Below, in pieces: positions 7,794-38,658 of a DNA stretch of 64,000 nucleotides (its first letter is position 1; every line of letters begins with the position of its first letter). Position numbers and translations under genes: made by a program. The stretch lies in assembly GCA_016198685.1 (NCBI GenBank), contig JACQID010000006.1, positions 32,001 through 96,000 of the forward strand. Reading direction: 5' to 3'. Origin of the DNA: Candidatus Aenigmatarchaeota archaeon. GTDB lineage: Archaea; Aenigmatarchaeota; Aenigmatarchaeia; GW2011-AR5. Below the pieces are notes generated by a model, which saw nothing but the letters and a program-made list of their open reading frames with translations, searched no databases and had not been told where the DNA came from.

Positions 7794-9130
7794 GAGTTGG
7801 ATGCCTCCCATAGTTTTTCTATGAACTCTTGTATATTGTCCCATGTCGTAGTTAGATATTGCGCTGTTGGTGCAAAGTCCTTATTGTGTAGAAATGCTTG
7901 CCATGTCTTTATTCCAAGAACTCCATACTGTTCCGAAGCAGCGGTTCTTATACCCTTCAACTTATAGGAATTAACTTTGTGTTGTTTTTCTAACATTTCG
8001 GCTACTGCTGACGCCTTGTCTTTGAGTGATATAAATTTTCCAGTCTTTTCTGTAGGAATCTCATTTTTTTCGCAAAAATGATCTATACTTAATTCCACAA
8101 AAACTCGAAATAATGCTGCGGTTGCATTAACATAATTTTCTATTGGAATTTTTTTTAATTCGTGGTATATACTGTTAATTTTTGGATTATCTATGCTGAT
8201 ATTACACGTTTTTGGTATTAATTTTTGACGATTTTTTGGATTCACCTTTATCTTTTTAGCTACCGTACCGGTATTATTCGTAGGTTGTAATAATGCCCAC
8301 AGTTTCTCGCTTGTTTTAGATTTATCTGGCAATGCATCTTTCGGGAGTGATTTAATGTAATCTTGCCTGTCTTTTTTGCTATATATGGTTTTTACTGTGA
8401 AATTGGGGTCTATACAATCCGTGACAATCTTTTCGAGAGTCTTTGCAATCTCTTTTCCATCTATCTCTGTCTTAAGCTCTCCGTCGGAATAATTGATCCC
8501 GATAGCATTTCGTATATCTGGATCTGAAAGAAGCCTATCGAGATTCGTTAATTTTACATCCTTCATTTTGTCTTTTGTATCAGTAGATATATACGGAGAG
8601 CTTTCCAGGAATGACAAAACTTGCAAAGCTATACTGGGTGTTCCATTATTTTTCTGTTCGTAACGATTTTTTTGCACAGAAGTCCATTTTTCTGTACCCG
8701 CACCTTCGTTTCCTAGTCCGTGCTTTAATGCAATCCAGTGATCGGCCTCTTTAGGATCATCATAATAAATGCATTCAACATTTGTTATAATTTTATTCTG
8801 ATGCTGTTTTTTTAAATCTTCAAATTTTTTCTTCAGGCCATTGTCACGTATCCTATCGGGATTCACTAAAAATTTTAATACGACGGCACGTCTATTTCCT
8901 TCCAAAACTATATATTTTGTTTTATCGTGTTGCCATGGAGAAATAATTATTTGATCCGTGGGGTTTAAGTTATATGTCATTATATCCAGTGCAAGAGAGT
9001 ACAACTTTTTATTGCCTTGATCATCTACTATATTTTTTATAGCGGCTTCTTCATCTCCAACCGGCTCGTAACGATAGTTCTCGGGATTTATCAATAAATC
9101 TTCTATCTTCACAGTCTTAGTGTTTGTCAT
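7790..9130 (-). CDS. ParB/Srx-like N-terminal domain plus putative HEPN-like C-terminal domain
   Basis: N-terminus LLINPENYRY..YIVLEGNRR (ParB-like GxxR). C-terminus ALFRVFVELSIDHF..WQAFLHN resembles a degenerate HEPN. Confidence 0.7.
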   Translation of the reverse strand: MTNTKTVKIEDLLINPENYRYEPVGDEEAAIKNIVDDQGNKKLYSLALDIMTYNLNPTDQIIISPWQHDKTKYIVLEGNRRAVVLKFLVNPDRIRDNGLKKKFEDLKKQHQNKIITNVECIYYDDPKEADHWIALKHGLGNEGAGTEKWTSVQKNRYEQKNNGTPSIALQVLSFLESSPYISTDTKDKMKDVKLTNLDRLLSDPDIRNAIGINYSDGELKTEIDGKEIAKTLEKIVTDCIDPNFTVKTIYSKKDRQDYIKSLPKDALPDKSKTSEKLWALLQPTNNTGTVAKKIKVNPKNRQKLIPKTCNISIDNPKINSIYHELKKIPIENYVNATAALFRVFVELSIDHFCEKNEIPTEKTGKFISLKDKASAVAEMLEKQHKVNSYKLKGIRTAASEQYGVLGIKTWQAFLHNKDFAPTAQYLTTTWDNIQEFIEKLWEASNS

Positions 9131-9174
9131 GTTAAAATTCTGGTAACACTACTATTTATTGCCTTAAATCATAC

Positions 9175-9412
9175 CTATCTCCCGCCCCCCTTCAAAAAAT
9201 ACTTCGGAAAGACGGCGGTGCACCGCTCGGGATAGTTTATTGTCCAGAGGCGGTAGTGGTCTTCTGTTTTCCCGGCGCCGCCGAGCTTGGTTTGGAGGCA
9301 GGCGTCGGCTTCCGAGAAGAGGAGCTTGACGGCGGGCTCGTCGGCTTTGTCCACTTCCACGGGCCTTGCCGGGAGGTCTTTACGTATGAAGTTTCGGACG
9401 GTATGGGCAGGC
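9175..9412 (-). pseudogene. Possible GC-rich gene relic with no evident start
   Basis: Protein-like open frame (PAHTVRNFIRKDLPARPVEVDKADEP..LWTINYPERC) begins right after the ATPase stop and sits at a visible GC/AT boundary. Confidence 0.3.
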
Positions 9413-9415
9413 GGC

Positions 9416-10858
9416 TCAGCACATGAACAGGAAGAACTTCAGCGGGATTTGCAGCACTTTGCCTTCCAGGTCCAGCGTATTTTTTGTCACCATGATGCCG
9501 AAGGGCGATTTGTACTTGGTCATGAACCGCGGCATTGCCCTTGATTCCTCCCGGCTGTTGCGGAATTTGACCTCTATTGGGATGGGCGTTCCTGCGTCGA
9601 GCACTACGTCTATCTCGCCTTCCTTGCACATCCAGTAAAAAACTTCCGCATCCTGGCTTCCGTTCAGGAAAAATTTCAGCCGCTTGACGTGGTCAAAAAC
9701 GAGCGTTTCGGCCGCTATGCCCATTTCCACCGGCTCCTTCAACAGGGATTCATTCATCATTCCCACCATGCTGTTCCTCATCCCAACATCGTTGAGATAG
9801 TATTTCTTCTCCTTGCGCTCCCGCACAGGAAGCCTTTTTGAATAAAAGCTGGACTTTGACACCAGAAACACATCTTCAAGATATCCGATGTGCGATATCA
9901 CGGTAGGGCGCTCAACACCTATGTCCTGAGATATTCCAGCATACGTCAGCCTGCTCCCGGATTTTGCGGCTATCAGCGACATGAAATACCGTATTATATC
10001 GACGCGCCTTACCCGGTGCCTCTCTATTATGTCCAGAATGGACTTCGACAATATCGTATCCTTGAGCTCGGAACTGCATTCCGCCAGGTCGTGATTCTTC
10101 TGTATTTCGGGATAGCCGCCTTTTATCATGAAGGCCGAAAGGCCCCTCTCGATTTCATTTTCATGTTTCACCAACTCGTGCGACATGCCGCCAAAAGCTT
10201 TGCGCAGTTCCGCCGGACTGCCCTTTCTTATGGACGCGCAAAGCGCGTCCCTCAATGCAAGGCTCAACTCGTAATATTCCTGCGTCTTGCCGCCGAAGTC
10301 CATGATATCGCTGAATTTCAACGGCAGGACTATCCGTTCCTTTATCCTGCCCACGAGGCGGCCGGCGCCTTTCTGTATCATGGCGCTGGACGAGCCGGAA
10401 ACTATGAATTTTATGTTGTATCCGTAATCAAACCACGTCTTCAGCTTCTTTTCCCAGTCTTCCAGATACTGTATCTCATCCAATAGAACGTATATCTTTT
10501 GCGCAATCTTCCGATAGTCTTCTTTCAATATATTGCGGGAATAGACCTCAATTATAGACTCCAGCGGCTCCTTAGCGGACGATGCCAGATATGCATTATC
10601 CATGGACGCATAAATTATATGCACGGGATCTATATTTCTGTTTTTTATCATGTGTTCAATAAGCTGGAACAGCAAAGTCGTTTTGCCTACCCGTCTCGGA
10701 CCTATTATAGACGTTATTTTTTCAGAATCAAGTTCCTTCCATAACGTATAGAAATCCCGCCGCCTGAAATCGGGCGCCTTGCTTTTAGGTAGCGCCATTC
10801 CTTCCCAATGGGGGTTGTACTCGTTCGTCAATACGCGCAATACTTGTAATTCATCCAT
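9416..10858 (-). CDS. AAA+ ATPase (AAA_14-type) with DUF4143 C-terminal domain
   Basis: GPRRVGKTT Walker A, LLDEIQ Walker B, VSGSSS, GGYPE, KKYYLNDVG, and C-terminal EIDVV..PIEVK (PD-(D/E)xK-like). Confidence 0.9.
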   Translation of the reverse strand: MDELQVLRVLTNEYNPHWEGMALPKSKAPDFRRRDFYTLWKELDSEKITSIIGPRRVGKTTLLFQLIEHMIKNRNIDPVHIIYASMDNAYLASSAKEPLESIIEVYSRNILKEDYRKIAQKIYVLLDEIQYLEDWEKKLKTWFDYGYNIKFIVSGSSSAMIQKGAGRLVGRIKERIVLPLKFSDIMDFGGKTQEYYELSLALRDALCASIRKGSPAELRKAFGGMSHELVKHENEIERGLSAFMIKGGYPEIQKNHDLAECSSELKDTILSKSILDIIERHRVRRVDIIRYFMSLIAAKSGSRLTYAGISQDIGVERPTVISHIGYLEDVFLVSKSSFYSKRLPVRERKEKKYYLNDVGMRNSMVGMMNESLLKEPVEMGIAAETLVFDHVKRLKFFLNGSQDAEVFYWMCKEGEIDVVLDAGTPIPIEVKFRNSREESRAMPRFMTKYKSPFGIMVTKNTLDLEGKVLQIPLKFFLFMC

Positions 10859-30582: not shown

Positions 30583-31620
30583 ATGATTGGCATTACCGGA
30601 TACGGGGCATACATCCCGCGCTTTCGCATCAAAGCCGAGGAGATAGCCCGCGTCTGGAACCAGGACGGCGAGGCTTTCAAGCGGGGCTTGAAGATAAGTG
30701 AAAAAGCCGTTCCTGCAGCAGACGAAGACACAGTGACTATAAGCGTCGCGGCTGGAAAAAACGCAATAGCGCGGGCTGGCATAGATCCGCAGCAAATAGG
30801 CGCTTTGTTTATAGGAAGCGAAAGTCATCCTTACGCCGTGAAGCCCTCAGGAACGATGGCTGTCGATGCCCTTGGAATAGGGCCGGAAGTCATGGTTGCT
30901 GATTTTGAATTTGCATGCAAGGCCGGAACTGCAGCGATGCAATGCTGCATGGGTCTTGTGCAATCTGGCATGATAAAATACGGGATGGCAATAGGCGCAG
31001 ACACAGCACAAGGTCAGCCAGGCGATGCCCTTGAATATTCCGCTGCTGCAGGCGGAGCGGCTTTTGTCATAGGCAGGGACAATATCATTGCAAAGATAAT
31101 CGATACGTTCTCATTCACATCGGACACGCCTGACTTCTGGAGGCGCGAGGGCGAGAAATATCCGCGCCACGCAGCCAGGTTCACCGGCGAACCGGCATAT
31201 TTTAAACACGTAATTGAAGCAACTAAAGGCATTCTGAAGAAGACGGGCACAACTGTCAATGATTATGATAAGGTCGTATTCCACATGCCTAACGGCAAAT
31301 TCCCGCGCGAAGCGGCGAAGAAGCTTGGAGTTCCTGAAGAGAAGATAAAGGATAGCCTTGTCGTAGAAAATGTCGGCAACAGCTATTCCGGCTCGTCTAT
31401 TGTAGGACTTACAAATGTTTTGGACAAGTCAATACCAGGAGAGAAAATATTGATGACATCTTTCGGTTCTGGTGCAGGAAGCGATTCTTTTGCTTTTGAA
31501 GTTACAGAAAGAATAACCAAAGCACGCGACCTTGCACGGAAGACTGAATATTACATAAACAGGAAGACTTATGTTGACTACGGAACTTATGCACGACTTA
31601 GAAAGAAATTGAAGGTCTAA
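30583..31620 (+). CDS. Hydroxymethylglutaryl-CoA synthase (archaeal type)
   Basis: GYGAYIP, DEDTVT, GSESHPYAVKP, catalytic EFACKAGT, VFHMPNG, GNSYSG, SFGSGAG. Confidence 0.95.
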   Translation: MIGITGYGAYIPRFRIKAEEIARVWNQDGEAFKRGLKISEKAVPAADEDTVTISVAAGKNAIARAGIDPQQIGALFIGSESHPYAVKPSGTMAVDALGIGPEVMVADFEFACKAGTAAMQCCMGLVQSGMIKYGMAIGADTAQGQPGDALEYSAAAGGAAFVIGRDNIIAKIIDTFSFTSDTPDFWRREGEKYPRHAARFTGEPAYFKHVIEATKGILKKTGTTVNDYDKVVFHMPNGKFPREAAKKLGVPEEKIKDSLVVENVGNSYSGSSIVGLTNVLDKSIPGEKILMTSFGSGAGSDSFAFEVTERITKARDLARKTEYYINRKTYVDYGTYARLRKKLKV

Positions 31621-32786
31621 TGATGAAAAATGTTGCTGTAATCGGCTTTGGACAAACAAAGTTCGGAGAACTTTGGGATAAGTCTCTTCGAGATCTTGCT
31701 AGTGAAGCCGGTATGTTGGCATTAAAAGACTCCGGTTTAGAGCCGGAAAAAATAGAGGCTCTTTACATAGGGAGTATGGCAGCCGGACGATTCGTAGGCC
31801 AGGAACATATATCCGCTTTAGCGGCTGATCATCTTGGCTTGAACCCTATTCCGGCGACCCGCACGGAAGCAGCCTGCGCTTCAGGTGCCACTGCTTTCCG
31901 CCAGGCTGTACTTGCAGTTGCCTCAGGAAAACATGATATTGTCATGGCATCGGGCGTTGAAAAAATGACTGACTTAAAGACATCTGAAGTAACCACGGCG
32001 CTGATGGGCGCTGCTGACCAGGAATGGGAGGCAGGAATCGGTCTGACATTCCCAGGACTTTATGCTCTCATGGCACGGGCTCACATGGCCAAATACGGCA
32101 CTACTTTAGAGCAGATTTCTTCTGTTTCTGTAATTAACCATAAACACGGAGCCAAGAACAAGAAAGCCCAGTATCCGTATGAAATCACGCTTGAACAGGC
32201 CATGAATTCCCAGCTTGTGGCAGATCCTCTACGCCTTATGGACTGTTCTCCAATAACAGACGGTGCGGCCTCGGTCATAGTGGCTTCTGAAGAAATTGCC
32301 AAAAAACTCGACCCTGTATGGGTTCTTTCAGTCCAGCAGGCCTCAGATACCATAGCCTTGCATGACCGAAAATCGCTTACCGAGCTTGCAGCAGCCAAGA
32401 TAGCGGCAAAAAAGGCGTATGAGGAAGCGGGCATTACAGCCAATAAAATGGATGTTACTGAAGTTCATGACTGCTTTTCCATAAATGAGATTCTGTCCGT
32501 GGAAGCGCTTGCTTATTGTCCTGAAGGTAGAGGTGGAAAATTCGTGCAAGACGGCAAGGTTGCTGTAGGCGGCGAAAGGCCCGTCAATACAACAGGAGGC
32601 CTCAAAGCAGGCGGCCACCCGGTAGGGGCCACAGGCATCAGGCAGATAGGAGATATATATCTGCAGCTCAAAGGCAAAAGCTGCAACCAGGTAAAGGGTG
32701 CTTCTGCCGGTCTCGCATTGAATGTCGGCGGTTCAGGCGCTACTGCTAATTTGGCTATCTTAGGAAGGGAGTTAAGGAGGAAATAA
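31620..32786 (+). CDS. Acetoacetyl-CoA thiolase (archaeal type)
   Basis: EAACASG, GVEKM, DCSPITDGA, EVHDCF, GGLKAGGHPVGATG, NVGG. Confidence 0.94.
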   Translation: MMKNVAVIGFGQTKFGELWDKSLRDLASEAGMLALKDSGLEPEKIEALYIGSMAAGRFVGQEHISALAADHLGLNPIPATRTEAACASGATAFRQAVLAVASGKHDIVMASGVEKMTDLKTSEVTTALMGAADQEWEAGIGLTFPGLYALMARAHMAKYGTTLEQISSVSVINHKHGAKNKKAQYPYEITLEQAMNSQLVADPLRLMDCSPITDGAASVIVASEEIAKKLDPVWVLSVQQASDTIALHDRKSLTELAAAKIAAKKAYEEAGITANKMDVTEVHDCFSINEILSVEALAYCPEGRGGKFVQDGKVAVGGERPVNTTGGLKAGGHPVGATGIRQIGDIYLQLKGKSCNQVKGASAGLALNVGGSGATANLAILGRELRRK

Positions 32787-32788
32787 AC

Positions 32789-33184
32789 ATGCCGCATAGA
32801 ACAGCAGTTGCACCGGAATGGAGGCTCAAAGAAGGCCGATATAATCTTGTGGGAAGCAGTTGTGCCTGTGGCGAACTTCATTTCCCGGCAAGGCGATACT
32901 GCCCTTCTTGTAAAAAGGAAACTGTACCTCATAAGTTCTTAGGTAAGGGTGAAATCGTCACTTATACTGTCATAAGAAGCGCTCCGGCAGGATTTGAGGA
33001 ATACGCTCCTTACGCTGTTGCCATAATAAAGCTTCAGGAAGGCCCTATGATTTCCGGCCAACTAATAAACCATCCGGAAGAGGTCAAGATCGGGAAGCGG
33101 GTAAGTCCTGTTTTCAGGAAGCTTACTGAAGACGGTGCAGGCGGAATCATCCACTACGGCATTAAGTTCGAGCTTGAAGAATGA
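32789..33184 (+). CDS. DUF35 Zn-ribbon/OB-fold scaffold protein
   Basis: CACG..CPSC, GEIVTYTVI, PYAVAIIKL, YGIKF. Third gene of the thiolase/HMGS cluster. Confidence 0.92.
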   Translation: MPHRTAVAPEWRLKEGRYNLVGSSCACGELHFPARRYCPSCKKETVPHKFLGKGEIVTYTVIRSAPAGFEEYAPYAVAIIKLQEGPMISGQLINHPEEVKIGKRVSPVFRKLTEDGAGGIIHYGIKFELEE

Positions 33185-33580
33185 TATTTTGCCATAATTT
33201 TTATTCGAATATTTTGTTACGTTTTCTATAACAATGGCGCCATAACGCTGTTATTTCTAGTTTCTATTAACCTTTACAGGAAATAAGGGGGTTATCGAAC
33301 CCACTCACCCCTATATTTCTTGTGGAGATTATTAGAAAAGCTAGAAAACTATTAACCTATACTTCATATAACAATGTTATTAAAAATAAATTAATTATAT
33401 ATGCCTTTCCATAGGAAATGAAGGGGTGTTAGATATTACAAGGAATATATTTTGCTGAATTAACCTTTCAAGTAGCAATAACTATATAAGGCGGCCAGAA
33501 GATTATAGTATCTTCATAAGAAACGGGGGTTCCTTCATTTCTTATGAAGCTTTCTATTTTGGGGAATAGAAAGTTTTTTA
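33185..33580. other. Replication origin oriC with at least five ORB-like elements and an AT-rich DUE
   Basis: ORB-like: TTTACAGGAAATAAGGGGG 33273-33291 (+), TCTCCACAAGAAATATAGGGG 33308-33328 (-), TTTCCATAGGAAATGAAGGGGT 33406-33427 (+), CTTCATAAGAAACGGGGGT 33512-33530 (+), CTTCATAAGAAATGAAGG 33532-33549 (-). AT-rich 33330-33402. Directly upstream of cdc6. Confidence 0.88.
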
Positions 33581-33595
33581 ATGGGGGTGTGGTAC

Positions 33596-34849
33596 ATGGA
33601 AGCAGATCAGGAGTTAGTTTTAAGCAATTCAGCAACAAGCGGCAATATATTCTCGCAGTATATTGAAAGCCCGAGTATTTTCACAGATAAGCGCGTTTTA
33701 ACCTCTTCTTTTGTTCCTGGTAGCATACCGCACAGGGAAGAAGAAATAAAGCACATAAGCTCCGTTCTTGCCCCTATGCTCAGGGGTTATCATGCCAATA
33801 ACGTCTTTGTTTATGGGACATGCGGCACAGGAAAAACTATCTGCTGCAGATTCGTTGTTTCCCAATTACAAGAAGCGGTCAAAGCCGCAGCAACACAAAT
33901 TAAGGTCATATACATAAATTGCAAGATGGAGCGGGTTTCCGATACCGAGTACAGGCTTTTTGCCCAAATGCTCAAGCAACTTGGTGAGGAAGTGCCGTAC
34001 ACAGGATTACCAACTGACGTAATCTATAGGAAGTTCTTTGCTAAGGTTGCTGAAAAGAAGCAGAGTGTCATCATCATATTAGATGAGATAGACGCGCTTT
34101 ACAAGAAAGTTGGTGATGATTTCCTTTACAACATAACCCGTGCCAACAATGAATTAGGAGAGGCAAACTTGAGCATAATAGGCATAACCAACGACATATC
34201 TTTCAGGGACAATCTTGACGTGAGAGTGAAATCATCATTAAGCGAAGAAGAAGTGATGTTCAGGCCTTACAATGCCGTGCAGTTAAGGGACATATTGTCA
34301 TCCCGTGCCAAGGACGGTTTTGTCAAAGGGGCCGTGAGCGAGAGCGTCATAAATAAGTGTGCGGCTCTGGCAGCTCAGGAGCACGGCGATGCGCGCAGGG
34401 CTTTGGATTTGTTGAGGGTTGCCGGGGAAGTTGCTGAAAGAATGGGGGAAACAGTCGTCAAGGAAAGGCATGTTGACGTAGCCGAAGAAAAAATAGATCT
34501 TGACAGGATAACCGAGACCGTTAAATCCCAGCCGGCACAATCCCAGCTTGTGCTTTACACGATAATAAAGATGAATGAGGAAGCCAAGCAGAAGGAAAAA
34601 TGGGCCGACAGAAGGCTGCTCACAGGAGACATATTCTCTAAATATGAGGAACTTTGCAGGGCCAATGGCGCAAAGGTTCTTACGCAGCGCAGGATAAGCG
34701 ATCTCATAGGTGAACTGGATATGTTCGGCATAATAAATGCCAAGGTCATATCTAAGGGAAGGCACGGCAGGACCCGAGAGATATCCTTAGCCATGAACGA
34801 AACCGCATTAGGCAAAGTAAGAAACTACCTTATGAACAGGTTTGGATGA
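33596..34849 (+). CDS. cdc6: Orc1/Cdc6 replication initiator
   Basis: PHREEEI, GTCGTGKT, YINC, ILDEID, HGDARRALDLL, C-terminal winged helix SKGRHGRTREI. Start is ATG 33596 or 33581. Confidence 0.96.
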   Translation: MEADQELVLSNSATSGNIFSQYIESPSIFTDKRVLTSSFVPGSIPHREEEIKHISSVLAPMLRGYHANNVFVYGTCGTGKTICCRFVVSQLQEAVKAAATQIKVIYINCKMERVSDTEYRLFAQMLKQLGEEVPYTGLPTDVIYRKFFAKVAEKKQSVIIILDEIDALYKKVGDDFLYNITRANNELGEANLSIIGITNDISFRDNLDVRVKSSLSEEEVMFRPYNAVQLRDILSSRAKDGFVKGAVSESVINKCAALAAQEHGDARRALDLLRVAGEVAERMGETVVKERHVDVAEEKIDLDRITETVKSQPAQSQLVLYTIIKMNEEAKQKEKWADRRLLTGDIFSKYEELCRANGAKVLTQRRISDLIGELDMFGIINAKVISKGRHGRTREISLAMNETALGKVRNYLMNRFG

Positions 34850-35913
34850 TGGACAAAGCTGATATCGTACGGCATTATTTTGACCGGCAGCAGCTTCTGA
34901 CTCCGGCGGCGCTTGATAAGCTATCTGCTGCAGGCAGGCTGCCGGAAACAGATTCCGGGCTTTTTGTCATTGATAAAAGCGATCTTGAGCAGGACAACAT
35001 ACGGATTCTTAAGTGTCTCCAGAGCAGGCCGAAGGAGGTAGACACGGATATGTTCCTGAAATTTTATACGTCCAAATACAACAAAATGCGCGATATATTT
35101 ACTGCGCGTTTCAACAAGAATTTTATCTCCTTGAATAAGGTAGACGCTTCGCGTTCTGAAATAGCGGTATTCGGCATAGTCAAGGATGTGAAAGACAAGA
35201 CAATAGAGCTTGAGGATATGACATCCTCGGTCTCTGTAGTTTTTGAAACTCCGTTGGAAAAAGTGGAGCGCGATGACGCCATTGCAGTCGAGGGTGTAAG
35301 CGGCGGCAAAGTAATCTACGGCAAAAAAATAATGTTTGCAGATGTTCCATTGAGGCAGCCGGCGACGGGCACAGGCAAGGCGTGTTTTATTTCCGATTTG
35401 AGGCTTAGCGAAGCTCCGCGCAAGGAAGCTGAGAAATTCTTTTCGTGGTTCCAGAACCAGGACATCAGGAACCTTTTCATTTGCGGAGACACAGGGGATC
35501 TTGCCGCGCTTGAGGCTATAGTACGCAGATATTGTAGCGGAAAGAATATCTTTGTCGCCCCGGGCGAAGCGGATGACAAAGAGTATCCGCGCTTGCCGCT
35601 TAAGACGCCTAGTGTCACAGCACTTTCGGATCCCGCTATCGTTGAAATCAACGGCATAAAGATACTTGTTATTCATAACTTTGAGATAGGGATGCTGCGC
35701 AAGCGTTACTTGGGCAGGAGCAAGTCTATCTTGCCAGATGACTACTTGGTCTTGGAAGATGTTCCTGATATAGTGCATTGCGGCCATACAGGAAAACCGT
35801 TTGTCCAGAATTACAAGGCCATAACCATAGTCAACAGCGGGTCAATACTGGAGGAATTCAAGCCCGTTGTCATAGATTTTGCCACACGCGAGGTAAGGCA
35901 GGCTGCTTTGTGA
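34846..35913 (+). CDS. PolD small subunit (DP1)/polymerase B-subunit homologue with degenerate phosphoesterase motifs
   Basis: N-terminal helical domain, OB fold (FGIVKDV..IELEDMTSSV), and a calcineurin-like region with ISDLR, CGDTGD, PGEAD, IHN, GHTG, VNSGS. ATGA-coupled to cdc6. Confidence 0.85.
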   Translation: MMDKADIVRHYFDRQQLLTPAALDKLSAAGRLPETDSGLFVIDKSDLEQDNIRILKCLQSRPKEVDTDMFLKFYTSKYNKMRDIFTARFNKNFISLNKVDASRSEIAVFGIVKDVKDKTIELEDMTSSVSVVFETPLEKVERDDAIAVEGVSGGKVIYGKKIMFADVPLRQPATGTGKACFISDLRLSEAPRKEAEKFFSWFQNQDIRNLFICGDTGDLAALEAIVRRYCSGKNIFVAPGEADDKEYPRLPLKTPSVTALSDPAIVEINGIKILVIHNFEIGMLRKRYLGRSKSILPDDYLVLEDVPDIVHCGHTGKPFVQNYKAITIVNSGSILEEFKPVVIDFATREVRQAAL

Positions 35914-35985
35914 GACAAACCCGGAAGGCTTTAAGGAGGAGAACGCCCCTCCAAAATTTAAATAAGCTCGCGGCAAGCTAATTGA

Positions 35986-38658
35986 ATGGCACTTGTTTTT
36001 CAGATACTTGATGTGGATTATTTTCTCAATGGCGATAAGCCTGTAGTCCGCCTCTTTGGAAGAAGTGACGCCGGCAATGCCGTATGCGTATTATGCAGGG
36101 ATTTTCTTCCTTATTTTTACATAAGGCCGAAGAATGAAGAGGCTTTGGATGACGTAAAGGAGATCCTTTCCATAGAAGAAGCGGAAAAATTATTGGCAAT
36201 AGGATATTCAACCAAGAAAACAAGGCTTTTGAAAATCACCATATCGAAGCCGCAGGATGTTCCCATGATTAAGGAACAGCTCCTCAGCCAAGGCATAGCA
36301 GAAGAAGTCTTTGAAGCCGATATATTATTCAAGAACAGGTTTCTGGTTGACCATGACCTGCACGGCATGCAGTGGGCAGAAGCAGACGTTGTCAAGACCA
36401 GTACCAGCACGGTAAAGGTTCCTGCCTTTGAGATGAAATCCATAAAGCCGATGGACAGGAAAGACAACGCCAAACTTTCAATACTATCATTTGATATAGA
36501 GTGCGTGCCATCCGATCCCAACAGGCCACTGGATTCCAAGAAAGACCCTGTAGTCATCATATCACTCTCATTCAACGTTCCTTACAGGGGAACCACGAGC
36601 ATAGTGCAGGTCGCCAAGCCTGTCAACGGAAAAGGGCTGCAGGGATTTCCCAATGAAAAAGACATGCTGGAAGGGTTTCTGCGCGTTATTGACGAATATA
36701 ATCCGGACATAATCACAGGCTACAACATAAACACATTCGACATACCCTACATACTGGAGCGAATGCGGGTGCACGGAATACCGCCCATGCTTGGCAGATG
36801 CAAGGACAAGCCGGCTTATAATAAAAGCACAGGAGTCACGCAGGAATCCATAATTCCGGGCAGGGTGGTTGCGGATCCTTACCAGATATTGAAGAGGGAC
36901 CCAAGAATCAAGTTCAGCCGTTATGACTTAAACACAATATGCAAAGTCCTGCTTGGCGACACCAAAATGGACGTTGAGTACAGGGAGATGCCCAAGCTTT
37001 GGAACGGGCCTCTCGAAGGCGTCTTGCGTTTTGCAGAATATGCACGCAAGGACGCAGAGCTTAATCTGCGTCTTGTGGTTGAAAAGGACATGCTATCCAA
37101 TTTCATAGAAATAGCCAAAGTTTCAGGTACTGTGATGCAGGACACATTCGGCGGCCAGACTTTGCGAATAGACAATATGCTCCTCTATGAGTTCAGGAAG
37201 CGCGGTTATGTTTTACCGGCCAAACCTGATGCCAATTTAATGAATAAACGTACCAATGAAAGGGAAAAAGCAGGGCTCAAAGGCGCAACAGTTCTTGAGC
37301 CGAAGAAAGGATTGCATGCCGAAGGCTGCATACTGGTCATGGACTTCAAGAGCCTATATCCAAGCATAATGAGAACGTTCAATACGTCTCCCGATTCGCT
37401 TCTTGTCGATGATTCGGTCGGCGAGTTTTATACGTCGCCGACCGGCGCGAAGTTCGTGCCTGCATCTGTACACGAAGGAGTGTTTCCGTACATCGTCGGA
37501 AAGCTGCTTGACAGCAGATCAGAAGTCAAGGGGCAGATGAAGGATGCTGACGGCGAAATGAAAAAAATATTGAATGCAAGGCAATATGCGTTAAAAGACC
37601 TTGCCAATTCGTTCTACGGATACACAGGCTATCTGCGGGCGCGCGTTTATGACATACGGGTTGCGAGCACGATAACGGCCATAGGAAGGGAGAACATAGA
37701 GAAGACAAAGGACTTGATTGAAAACAACTTCGACATTGAGGTCGTATATGGCGATACTGACTCGGTTTTCATCAAGACCAAGACCACGAACCTTGAGGAT
37801 GCAAAAAAAATCGGCGAGGATATATCCAAGTTCGTGAGTGAAAGATTGCCAGGTTTTCTTACCCTGGACTTTGAAAAGATATACAGAACGTTCCTTATTC
37901 TTACAAAGAAAAGATATGCCGGATGGAAGTTCGAATTCGGGAAGAATGGATGGGAAGATTCTATAGAGATGAAAGGGATAGAGACGGTGAGACGCGATTG
38001 GTGCAAGCTCGTTTCTGAAACGATGAGAACCGTGCTTGACATAATACTGAAGGAAGGAGACCTGCAGAAGGCGGTCAATGAAACAAAGAGGGTCATAATA
38101 CAGCTCCGCAACAATGAAATAGATTTCGACAAGCTGACCGTTGTAAAAGGAATAACAAAATCTCTTGGAAGTTATGACGGCATGTTGCCGCACATAGAGC
38201 TGGCAAGGAAACTTGCGCAGAGAAACCCCCACGACCCGCCGAAGATCGGCGACCGCCTCGGGTTTGTCATAATCAAGGGCAATCAGATGCTGTCGAAACG
38301 GGCGGAAGATACGAAATATGCAAAGGACAACAAGCTTCAGATAGATTCTGACTACTATATTAATTCCCAAGTCTTCCCCCCTGTAGAGAGGATACTTTCT
38401 TCGGTCGGGGTCGAAAAGAGCGAAGTGTTCGGCTCTGGCCGTCAGTCAACGATAGCAGACATCATGTTCGGAACAAAGCGCAAAATGAAGCATGAAATAG
38501 CCATCAATTACGGCACAGTAGCCGGCTGGGAGGGTCTGGTTTGCCAGAAATGCGCGAAGTCGCATCCGAGAATGCCTTTAAGCGGCAGATGCGAATGCGG
38601 CGGCCCGCTTCTTTTTTCATATCAGGGAAGCGCCGCGCAGAAAGTAGTGACCGAATAG
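35986..38658 (+). CDS. polB: Family B DNA polymerase with intact proofreading motifs and a C-terminal 4-Cys Zn finger
   Basis: Exo I FDIE, Exo II GYNINTFD, Exo III YARKD; pol A DFKSLYPS, pol B KDLANSFYGY, pol C YGDTDS; KKRYA, KGIETVRRD. Tail CQKC..RMPLSGRCECGG. Own TATA (TTTAAATA about 35957). No intein. Confidence 0.96.
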   Translation: MALVFQILDVDYFLNGDKPVVRLFGRSDAGNAVCVLCRDFLPYFYIRPKNEEALDDVKEILSIEEAEKLLAIGYSTKKTRLLKITISKPQDVPMIKEQLLSQGIAEEVFEADILFKNRFLVDHDLHGMQWAEADVVKTSTSTVKVPAFEMKSIKPMDRKDNAKLSILSFDIECVPSDPNRPLDSKKDPVVIISLSFNVPYRGTTSIVQVAKPVNGKGLQGFPNEKDMLEGFLRVIDEYNPDIITGYNINTFDIPYILERMRVHGIPPMLGRCKDKPAYNKSTGVTQESIIPGRVVADPYQILKRDPRIKFSRYDLNTICKVLLGDTKMDVEYREMPKLWNGPLEGVLRFAEYARKDAELNLRLVVEKDMLSNFIEIAKVSGTVMQDTFGGQTLRIDNMLLYEFRKRGYVLPAKPDANLMNKRTNEREKAGLKGATVLEPKKGLHAEGCILVMDFKSLYPSIMRTFNTSPDSLLVDDSVGEFYTSPTGAKFVPASVHEGVFPYIVGKLLDSRSEVKGQMKDADGEMKKILNARQYALKDLANSFYGYTGYLRARVYDIRVASTITAIGRENIEKTKDLIENNFDIEVVYGDTDSVFIKTKTTNLEDAKKIGEDISKFVSERLPGFLTLDFEKIYRTFLILTKKRYAGWKFEFGKNGWEDSIEMKGIETVRRDWCKLVSETMRTVLDIILKEGDLQKAVNETKRVIIQLRNNEIDFDKLTVVKGITKSLGSYDGMLPHIELARKLAQRNPHDPPKIGDRLGFVIIKGNQMLSKRAEDTKYAKDNKLQIDSDYYINSQVFPPVERILSSVGVEKSEVFGSGRQSTIADIMFGTKRKMKHEIAINYGTVAGWEGLVCQKCAKSHPRMPLSGRCECGGPLLFSYQGSAAQKVVTE

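Follow-up and report, generated by a model that had tools for sequence, protein, structure and literature searches.

A family-B DNA polymerase with a DP2-type zinc ribbon and its probable DP1-like partner, encoded beside a putative replication origin in an Aenigmatarchaeota archaeon

The locus considered here lies in a stretch of 64,000 nucleotides (hereafter, the window) from a Candidatus Aenigmatarchaeota archaeon (GenBank assembly GCA_016198685.1, contig JACQID010000006.1, positions 32,001 to 96,000), and encodes a family-B DNA polymerase (PolB) with a zinc-ribbon tail together with a small protein resembling DP1, the small subunit of the archaeal polymerase PolD. Systems of this kind are already known, having been described in 2020 and their interaction shown in 2025, work in which their significance was also recognised and in part put to the test. 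Kazlauskas et al. (2020, NAR, PMC7544198) defined the B6 group of PolBs and described B6-aenigma1 for the Aenigmarchaeota; they reported that most members of this phylum are without DP2, the large subunit of PolD, and that a clade of inactive DP1 proteins co-occurs with these PolBs, and they proposed a replacement of DP2 by PolB, with a parallel in how the eukaryotic enzymes arose. More recently, AlphaFold3 models and a yeast two-hybrid interaction were presented for Aenigmatarchaeota DP1 and the PolB carrying a DP2-type C-terminal domain (CTD; PolB-DP2CTD), whereas finger-less PolBs of the phylum gave no DP1 interaction in the same assay; the two-motif ‘B6-aenigma2’ sequences were identified there as Baldrarchaeia contamination (PMC12680538, 2025, Nat Ecol Evol). 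A preliminary description of the locus, made from the sequence, noted that C-terminal Zn domains in some archaeal PolBs had been reported in PMC7544198. The novelty it considered possible does not hold, as the B6-aenigma1 PolB, the inactive DP1 clade and the loss of DP2 are all in that paper, and its belief that the heterodimer still awaited a test was out of date because of the yeast two-hybrid interaction reported in PMC12680538.

The pair in the window can be compared with PolD, of which the Pyrococcus abyssi enzyme provides the structural reference (PDB 6HMS, 6T8H; PMC6355029). There, the C-terminal Zn-III finger of DP2 plugs into a groove that DP1 forms between its oligonucleotide/oligosaccharide-binding (OB) and phosphoesterase domains. 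The RRxP loop of the finger (R1131, R1132) docks in this acidic groove where the two domains meet, and the affinity of DP1 for a 20-residue Zn-III peptide is nanomolar (PMC6355029). The window pair shares with PolD the fold of the small subunit, with its N-terminal, OB and phosphoesterase domains, as well as the Zn-III RRxP docking element; like those of Pyrococcus, its genes are placed next to cdc6 and the (here putative) oriC (PMC2643942). In contrast, its catalytic subunit belongs to family B instead of being a double-psi beta-barrel DP2, its DP1-like protein, some 120-260 residues shorter, is nuclease-dead, and its tail has neither the helical bundle of the CTD nor Zn-I and Zn-II. The Baldrarchaeia (Asgard) likewise possess a PolB with a DP2-derived CTD (PolB3-DP2CTD), have kept DP1 and are without DP2, and this PolB interacts with DP1 in yeast two-hybrid assays; their CTD, however, is of full length, like those of DP2 and the eukaryotic enzymes, whereas the Aenigmatarchaeota tail, termed a degenerate DP2CTD, is shorter and has another predicted structure (PMC12680538). 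As for B6-aenigma1 itself (PMC7544198, PMC12680538), the window pair has in common with it the phylum, a single Zn motif nearest to DP2 Zn-III, an inactive DP1 and the absence of DP2, and there is no difference in kind: its DP1 has suffered more erosion than most in the order, with two extra His ligands lost, and the docking loop reads PR and not RR. Judged by its domains, its tail homology and a host without DP2, the pair is in all probability a further member of the Aenigmarchaeota B6-aenigma1 PolB-DP2CTD/inactive-DP1 replicase. With a probability of about 0.9, the locus represents a two-subunit replicase of family B in its Aenigmarchaeota guise, in which PolB is joined by a nuclease-dead DP1-like B-subunit.

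In the CTDs of the eukaryotic replicative polymerases, a helical bundle bears two cysteine motifs named CysA and CysB. With Pol alpha, delta, epsilon and zeta and their B-subunits (PDB 4Y97, 5VBN, 6TNY), the window pair would share a family-B subunit tethered by a C-terminal metal module to an inactivated DP1-type B-subunit, with proofreading residing in the catalytic subunit, and the PolB core finds its best match in human Pol delta. The tail differs in having one Cys4 motif, the equivalent of CysB/Zn-2, and no CysA, helical bundle or Fe-S motif. The likeness to the eukaryotic architecture claimed in the preliminary description is therefore partial, with one Zn motif and no bundle in the tail against two Cys motifs on a bundle in the eukaryotic CTDs. 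To the known system the present analysis makes modest additions, namely an origin-linked gene order across the phylum, the failure to find a tailed PolB in those DP2-bearing genomes that were checked, and a metal site of DP1 that has been eroded in steps.

The tail of PolB and the DP1-like small subunit

Inspection of the listed open reading frames together with family scans recovered all the elements named in the preliminary description where it had placed them: an intergenic region with origin recognition box (ORB)-like sequences is followed by orc1/cdc6, the DP1-like gene and PolB, within positions 33185-38658 of the window (Table 1). As had been claimed, the polymerase motifs (DFKSLYPS, KDLANSFYG and YGDTDS) and exonuclease motifs (FDIEC, NINTFD and YARKD) of PolB are intact, all of them being read in the translation, and among solved structures the catalytic subunit of human Pol delta comes closest in sequence (E 4.3e-108), narrowly ahead of the Thermococcales PolB, which is the one hint of a place in the B6/Delta-like clade. 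Behind the thumb, a G-x-G-R/K-Q-x-x-L/I box resembling a PCNA-interacting-protein (PIP) box is conserved across 33 tails and can be aligned with the TRQVGLS tail of Thermococcales PolB; to go by this sequence, it probably binds PCNA. A variable linker separates the PIP-like box from the zinc ribbon, which makes up the last ~45 residues of the protein. The tail holds one CxxC...CxC (Cys4) motif only, following a linker of ~45 residues after the thumb, and all four cysteines are invariant in 33 full tails from across the phylum. The designation of this finger as DP2-like was borne out by the tail profile, whose best match in the PDB is Zn-III of Thermococcus kodakarensis DP2 (residues 1127-1160, E 1.6e-7), with P. 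abyssi DP2 (1124-1157) also matched; moreover, positions 1043-1078 of the DP2 model PRK04023 match the PolB tail. The aligned segment takes in the RRxP docking loop.

The DP1-like protein comprises an N-terminal helical domain, an OB fold and a shrunken phosphoesterase domain. In the family scans Pfam reports Metallophos_2 alone and misses DNA_pol_E_B, although many relatives reach the latter, while the NCBIfam DP1 models stay far under their cut-off (109 bits vs 445). Nevertheless, a profile built from 31 DP1-like orthologues matches solved DP1 chains (E 1.9e-39). An AlphaFold2 model of the protein (predicted local distance difference test, pLDDT, 92.7; predicted template-modelling score, pTM, 0.85) has P. 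abyssi DP1 as its top Foldseek match (E 1.7e-23, TMq 0.68-0.72), after which come the B-subunits of human Pol delta, epsilon and alpha, the fold thus being nearer to DP1 than to the eukaryotic B-subunits. Named homologues in a large protein collection all come from Candidatus Aenigmarchaeota, where they are annotated as metallophosphoesterase or DNA polymerase II small subunit, and the nearest public relative (89% identity) is encoded by a ‘Candidatus Aenigmatarchaeota’ metagenome-assembled genome (MAG).

The loss of metal ligands, another claim of the preliminary description, becomes evident upon alignment with the canonical DP1 of a family from the same phylum, designated f11, which keeps all five motifs (SDLHVGS, GDLVDG, GNHD, HG and GHLH). 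The corresponding segments of the window protein read SDLRLS, GDTGD, GEAD, IHN and GHTG, that is, D-L-R replaces DxH, GEAD replaces GNHD and GHTG replaces GHxH. Four catalytic or metal-binding residues are gone, the catalytic His and three metal-binding ones: the His of GNHD is an Ala, and two further His ligands have given way to R186 and G316. D184, D215, H277 and H314 are still present. The GNHD His aligns with H451 of P. abyssi (position 307 of the chain, to which an offset of 144, assumed from the chain length, was added), which, according to the title of PDB entry 6HMF, is changed in a proofreading-deficient variant. Given a preserved fold and the loss of these four residues, the protein is most likely a non-catalytic B-subunit that holds PolB via the finger.

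The extent of this erosion varies within the phylum. Among 26 proteins of the order to which the window belongs, the GNHD His is retained in just one, whereas DxH is found in 20, GD in 21, the motif IV His in 24 and the two His of GHxH in 20 and 18, respectively; since most of the order thus keeps DxH and both GHxH His, erosion has gone further in the window copy than in its relatives. In other families all five motifs are gone and the protein has shrunk to ~290-340 amino acids; its N-terminal helical domain and OB fold nonetheless persist, as do the last strands, and the gene still lies next to PolB. A decaying DP1 pseudogene, which the preliminary description had named as a possible objection to its own proposal, is ruled out by the intact frame and by a ratio of nonsynonymous to synonymous substitution rates (dN/dS) of 0.042 in comparison with an 89%-identical orthologue (cdc6: 0.023), indicative of strong purifying selection.

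Gene order, distribution and the origin-like region

The proposition that PolB has displaced DP2 in this lineage gained support from the genome as a whole and from its relatives. The source assembly (934,889 bp in 8 contigs) is 93.7% complete, and no match to the DP2 family PF03833 was found in it, although control genomes were matched; nor did searches with PF04042 and the DP1-like protein reveal a second DP1 in this assembly, nothing besides the window copy coming up, which speaks against a PolD hidden elsewhere in the genome at this completeness. Canonical PolD is hence not what was found in this genome, no DP2 having come up and the DP1 having four catalytic or ligand residues replaced. 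What the genome does contain, outside the window, is a second PolB of 764 amino acids (G000:C1:168795-169970; locus L002:1447-3741, minus strand), which is 29% identical to the tailed enzyme, has YADTDS as its motif C, ends just short of the PIP-like box and bears no zinc finger.

In a sample of 201 genomes from the phylum, a DP1-like match was obtained in 182, and DP2 (PF03833) in nine, these being all eight genomes of family f11 and one other. Five of the f11 genomes were checked, and each had a canonical DP1 of 472-512 amino acids and a finger-less PolB only (32-33% identical), so that DP2 and the tailed PolB were not found together. The match outside f11 is located on a 3-kb contig with adjacent DP1 and DP2 genes (L077; G090:C64:1-3058) and could be MAG contamination. 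Synteny was followed in 40 loci fetched from some 20 families: the collinear order of cdc6, DP1-like gene and PolB is seen in 26, five (family f16) have the DP1-like gene followed by PolB without cdc6, and five are locally rearranged. Altogether, PolB and the DP1-like gene are no more than about 4 kb apart in 36/40 loci, ruling out a loss of the pairing in relatives; PolB is absent from the fetched flank in the other four, whose genomes have a tailed PolB elsewhere. Nearly all of the sampled families yielded a tailed PolB, as a rule adjoining cdc6 and an origin-like region. Linkage of cdc6 and DP1 beside oriC is old and widespread in Euryarchaeota, and in Pyrococcus DP1 is followed by DP2 (PMC2643942), so that PolB here sits in the slot of DP2. 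No mention of the cdc6-DP1-PolB order or of the gene neighbourhood was found in the main text or the searched supplements of PMC7544198, and none of this order for the phylum in the main text of PMC12680538, its FigShare neighbourhood file apart; within the same portions of the two papers, neither the lack of a tailed PolB in the DP2-bearing genomes checked nor the erosion series was found stated.

Some of the relatives show peculiarities in these genes. Tailed PolB frames of 1218-1375 amino acids occur in several of them (L040 (G105:C2), L046 (G173:C6) and G176:C98), and one DP2-bearing genome has a DP1 of 847 amino acids (L076:681-3224); the lengths of these frames hint at insertions, for instance of inteins. 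In L003, the nearest public relative, whose proteins are 89-95% identical to those of the window, ~1.6 kb separate the DP1-like gene from PolB, and the PolB match falls into three pieces in different frames (L003:7065-8659 and 8659-10753), which may reflect an insertion and frameshifts, or assembly errors.

Table 1. Features of the origin-linked polymerase locus, in coordinates of the window.
Feature	Position	Strand	Basis
Putative replication origin	33185..33580	.	AT-rich spacer of 396 bp, 5' of cdc6, with ORB-like boxes
orc1/cdc6 replication initiator, 422 amino acids	33581..34849	+	Cdc6_C, Cdc6_lid, AAA; NF001625 490 bits, TIGR02928 415 bits
DP1-like small subunit, a nuclease-dead analogue of B-subunits, 355 amino acids	34846..35913	+	DP1 homology, fold, motif losses
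TATA-like element TTTAAATA	35958..35965	+	Read from sequence; ~25 bp before the PolB ATG, inside the 72-bp gap
Family-B DNA polymerase, 890 amino acids	35986..38658	+	PF00136 (DNA_pol_B) 364 bits, PF03104 (exonuclease domain) 124 bits
PIP-box-like segment GSGRQSTIADIM	38434..38469	+	Located where CTD-less archaeal PolBs end with a PCNA-binding box
C4 zinc ribbon (CQKC-x12-CEC), DP2 Zn-III homologue	38527..38655	+	Profile match to DP2

The spacer upstream of cdc6 contains the ORB-like core AYARGAAAYRNRGGGG in three exact copies, at 33276-33291 (+), 33308-33323 (-) and 33411-33426 (+). These are the only exact matches in the 64 kb, against a chance expectation of 0.11, a statistic that is partly circular because the pattern came from those same copies. 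A degenerate fourth copy (+) is found near 33512-33530, and an inverted pair (33306-33326 and 33408-33428) brackets an AT-rich stretch. The same core stands directly 5' of cdc6 in relatives L003, L034, L050, L052 and L069. A single-copy ORB pattern with three mismatches allowed gave just two matches, which is indistinguishable from chance, the degenerate core having told more. Taken together, these sequence features designate the spacer as a putative origin, at which replication may start. In four relatives ORB-like boxes with the core known from the 5' side of cdc6 are situated directly 3' of PolB (L042:5596-5611, L047:5186-5201, L055:5290-5305 and L071:853-929), and origin-type boxes thus also occur on the far side of the cdc6-DP1-PolB cluster in some genomes; no ORB-like box was seen 3' of PolB in the window.

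The cdc6 product is 95% identical to the copy in L003. The DP1-like gene and cdc6 overlap by their start and stop codons (ATGATG), and to this overlap the translational coupling claimed in the preliminary description applies; it does not extend to PolB, which starts 72 bp past the end of the DP1-like gene and is preceded by a TATA-like element. The position of this element suggests transcription of PolB from a separate promoter, with a leader of very few nucleotides, whereas the DP1-like gene would be coupled to cdc6. Directly 5' of the origin-like region, positions 30583-33184 (+) are occupied by three tightly packed genes for an HMG-CoA synthase-like protein (345 amino acids), a thiolase (388 amino acids) and a small OB-fold/zinc-ribbon protein of the ChsH2/DUF35 type (131 amino acids), a trio that resembles the usual archaeal thiolase/HMG-CoA synthase/DUF35 set of the mevalonate pathway.

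Proposed function, alternative explanations and possible history

When considered as a replicase, the pair would divide its tasks between the two subunits as follows. PolB would carry out DNA synthesis as well as 3'-5' proofreading, and its ribbon, probably inherited from the Zn-III finger of DP2, would serve as the handle by which the DP1-like protein, its fold kept, grips the polymerase as a non-catalytic B-subunit. The N-terminal helical domain and OB fold of the latter probably tie PolB to other parts of the replisome, making it a hub, whereas the PIP-like box just ahead of the finger would attach the enzyme to PCNA. In the genome, PolB would take the slot held by DP2 in Pyrococcus, beside an origin that we infer to fire.

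Several observations weigh against this reading. The docking loop of the window tail reads H-P-R-M-P, compared with Y-R-R-x-P in most relatives and in DP2, so that only one docking arginine of the two is left, as in five other tails; the tail is also devoid of the helical bundle that contacts DP1 in PolD and in the eukaryotic CTDs. The second, finger-less PolB could carry part or most of replication. Cumulative GC skew climbs through the window without a clear switch at 33.3 kb and is for this reason uninformative on the origin. Finally, the structure prediction for this particular complex lends weak support to binding. It consisted of one prediction, in which the alignment of the DP1-like protein was set against that of the tail, with three controls, and it yielded an interface score (ipSAE) of 0.50 (runs 0.40, 0.50 and 0.52), the best control scoring 0.00, with a pLDDT of the partner of 50-53 (the threshold being at least 49) and with no fewer than 60% of contacts shared between runs. 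Calibration had 58 of 80 solved complexes and 2 of 110 mismatches reaching the mark, and scores of 0.60 or below comprised 7 of the 80 together with both passing mismatches, counts that apply only roughly here because user-made alignments were fed to the prediction. Moreover, like complexes have already been solved, and a pass may therefore reflect memory and not binding of this copy.

The second PolB is also the starting point of an alternative that we regard as unlikely, namely that the finger-tailed PolB is an auxiliary enzyme or derives from a mobile element, with the finger-less one acting as the main replicase and the DP1-PolB pair being specialised in initiation, the lagging strand or repair. 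The catalytic motifs of the second PolB are plausible, a viral or mobile provenance has been suggested for the B6 polymerases (PMC7544198), and Thermococcales split the work between PolB and PolD. However, the near-universal occurrence of the tailed PolB in the sampled families, mostly by cdc6 and an origin-like region, fits a core, vertically inherited gene and not a mobile one, and its absence from the five DP2-bearing genomes checked is as expected had it assumed the role of DP2. Less probable still is a DP1-like protein that works apart from PolB, with an origin-related role of its own near cdc6, while the PolB finger binds DNA or some other partner. This idea draws on the linkage of cdc6 and DP1 near oriC, which in Euryarchaeota is widespread whatever the position of DP2 and has led to the proposal of a Cdc6-DP1 link (PMC2643942), on the coupling of the DP1-like gene to cdc6 and not to PolB, on the location of PolD Zn-III near the nascent duplex as well (PMC6355029) and on the weak complex score. 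It is contradicted by the yeast two-hybrid interaction of DP1 with PolB-DP2CTD, and not with finger-less PolBs, in Aenigmatarchaeota (PMC12680538), by family f16, in which DP1 and PolB remain adjacent without cdc6, and by the conservation of the RxP of the docking loop and of all four cysteines.

There is scarcely any likelihood, in our view, that the DP1-like protein remains catalytic, retaining a residual or altered phosphoesterase or nuclease function at a one-metal site that would provide PolB with a second editing or a flap activity. To be sure, the retention of the DxH, GD, motif IV and GHxH residues in the order (20/26, 21/26, 24/26 and 18-20/26, respectively) exceeds what a structural remnant would need, and the window copy has D184, D215, H277 and H314. 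Yet the catalytic His of GNHD, whose mutation abolishes the proofreading of P. abyssi DP1 as the title of the PDB entry has it, is gone in 25/26 proteins, R186 and G316 mark two more His ligands lost in the window copy, and families without any of the five motifs still hold the gene next to PolB. A two-subunit replicase of PolB and a non-catalytic DP1-like B-subunit accordingly remains the preferred account of the locus, and none of the outcomes that the preliminary description had named as fatal to its proposal was obtained.

As to how this replicase may have arisen, the oriC-cdc6-DP1-PolB order could be the fossil of an event in which a PolB core recombined in place into the DP2 gene, leaving the 3' Zn-III codons, after which DP1 was eroded step by step. 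We put this forward tentatively, as a possible history and not yet a probable one. A swap of this kind would have left the fusion and its partner adjacent and origin-linked from birth, and the gene order seen across the phylum fits it. The erosion would then have begun with the catalytic His, the other metal ligands being kept in most of this order and all five motifs having disappeared in other families. If true, these proteins would form a natural series of intermediates toward the inactive B-subunit of eukaryotes. The pair itself is most likely a present-day archaeal instance of the design seen in eukaryotic replicative polymerases, a family-B catalytic subunit tethered through a zinc module, and such an archaeal combination of PolB with a dead DP1 therefore bears on the replacement of PolD en route to the eukaryotic replisome.

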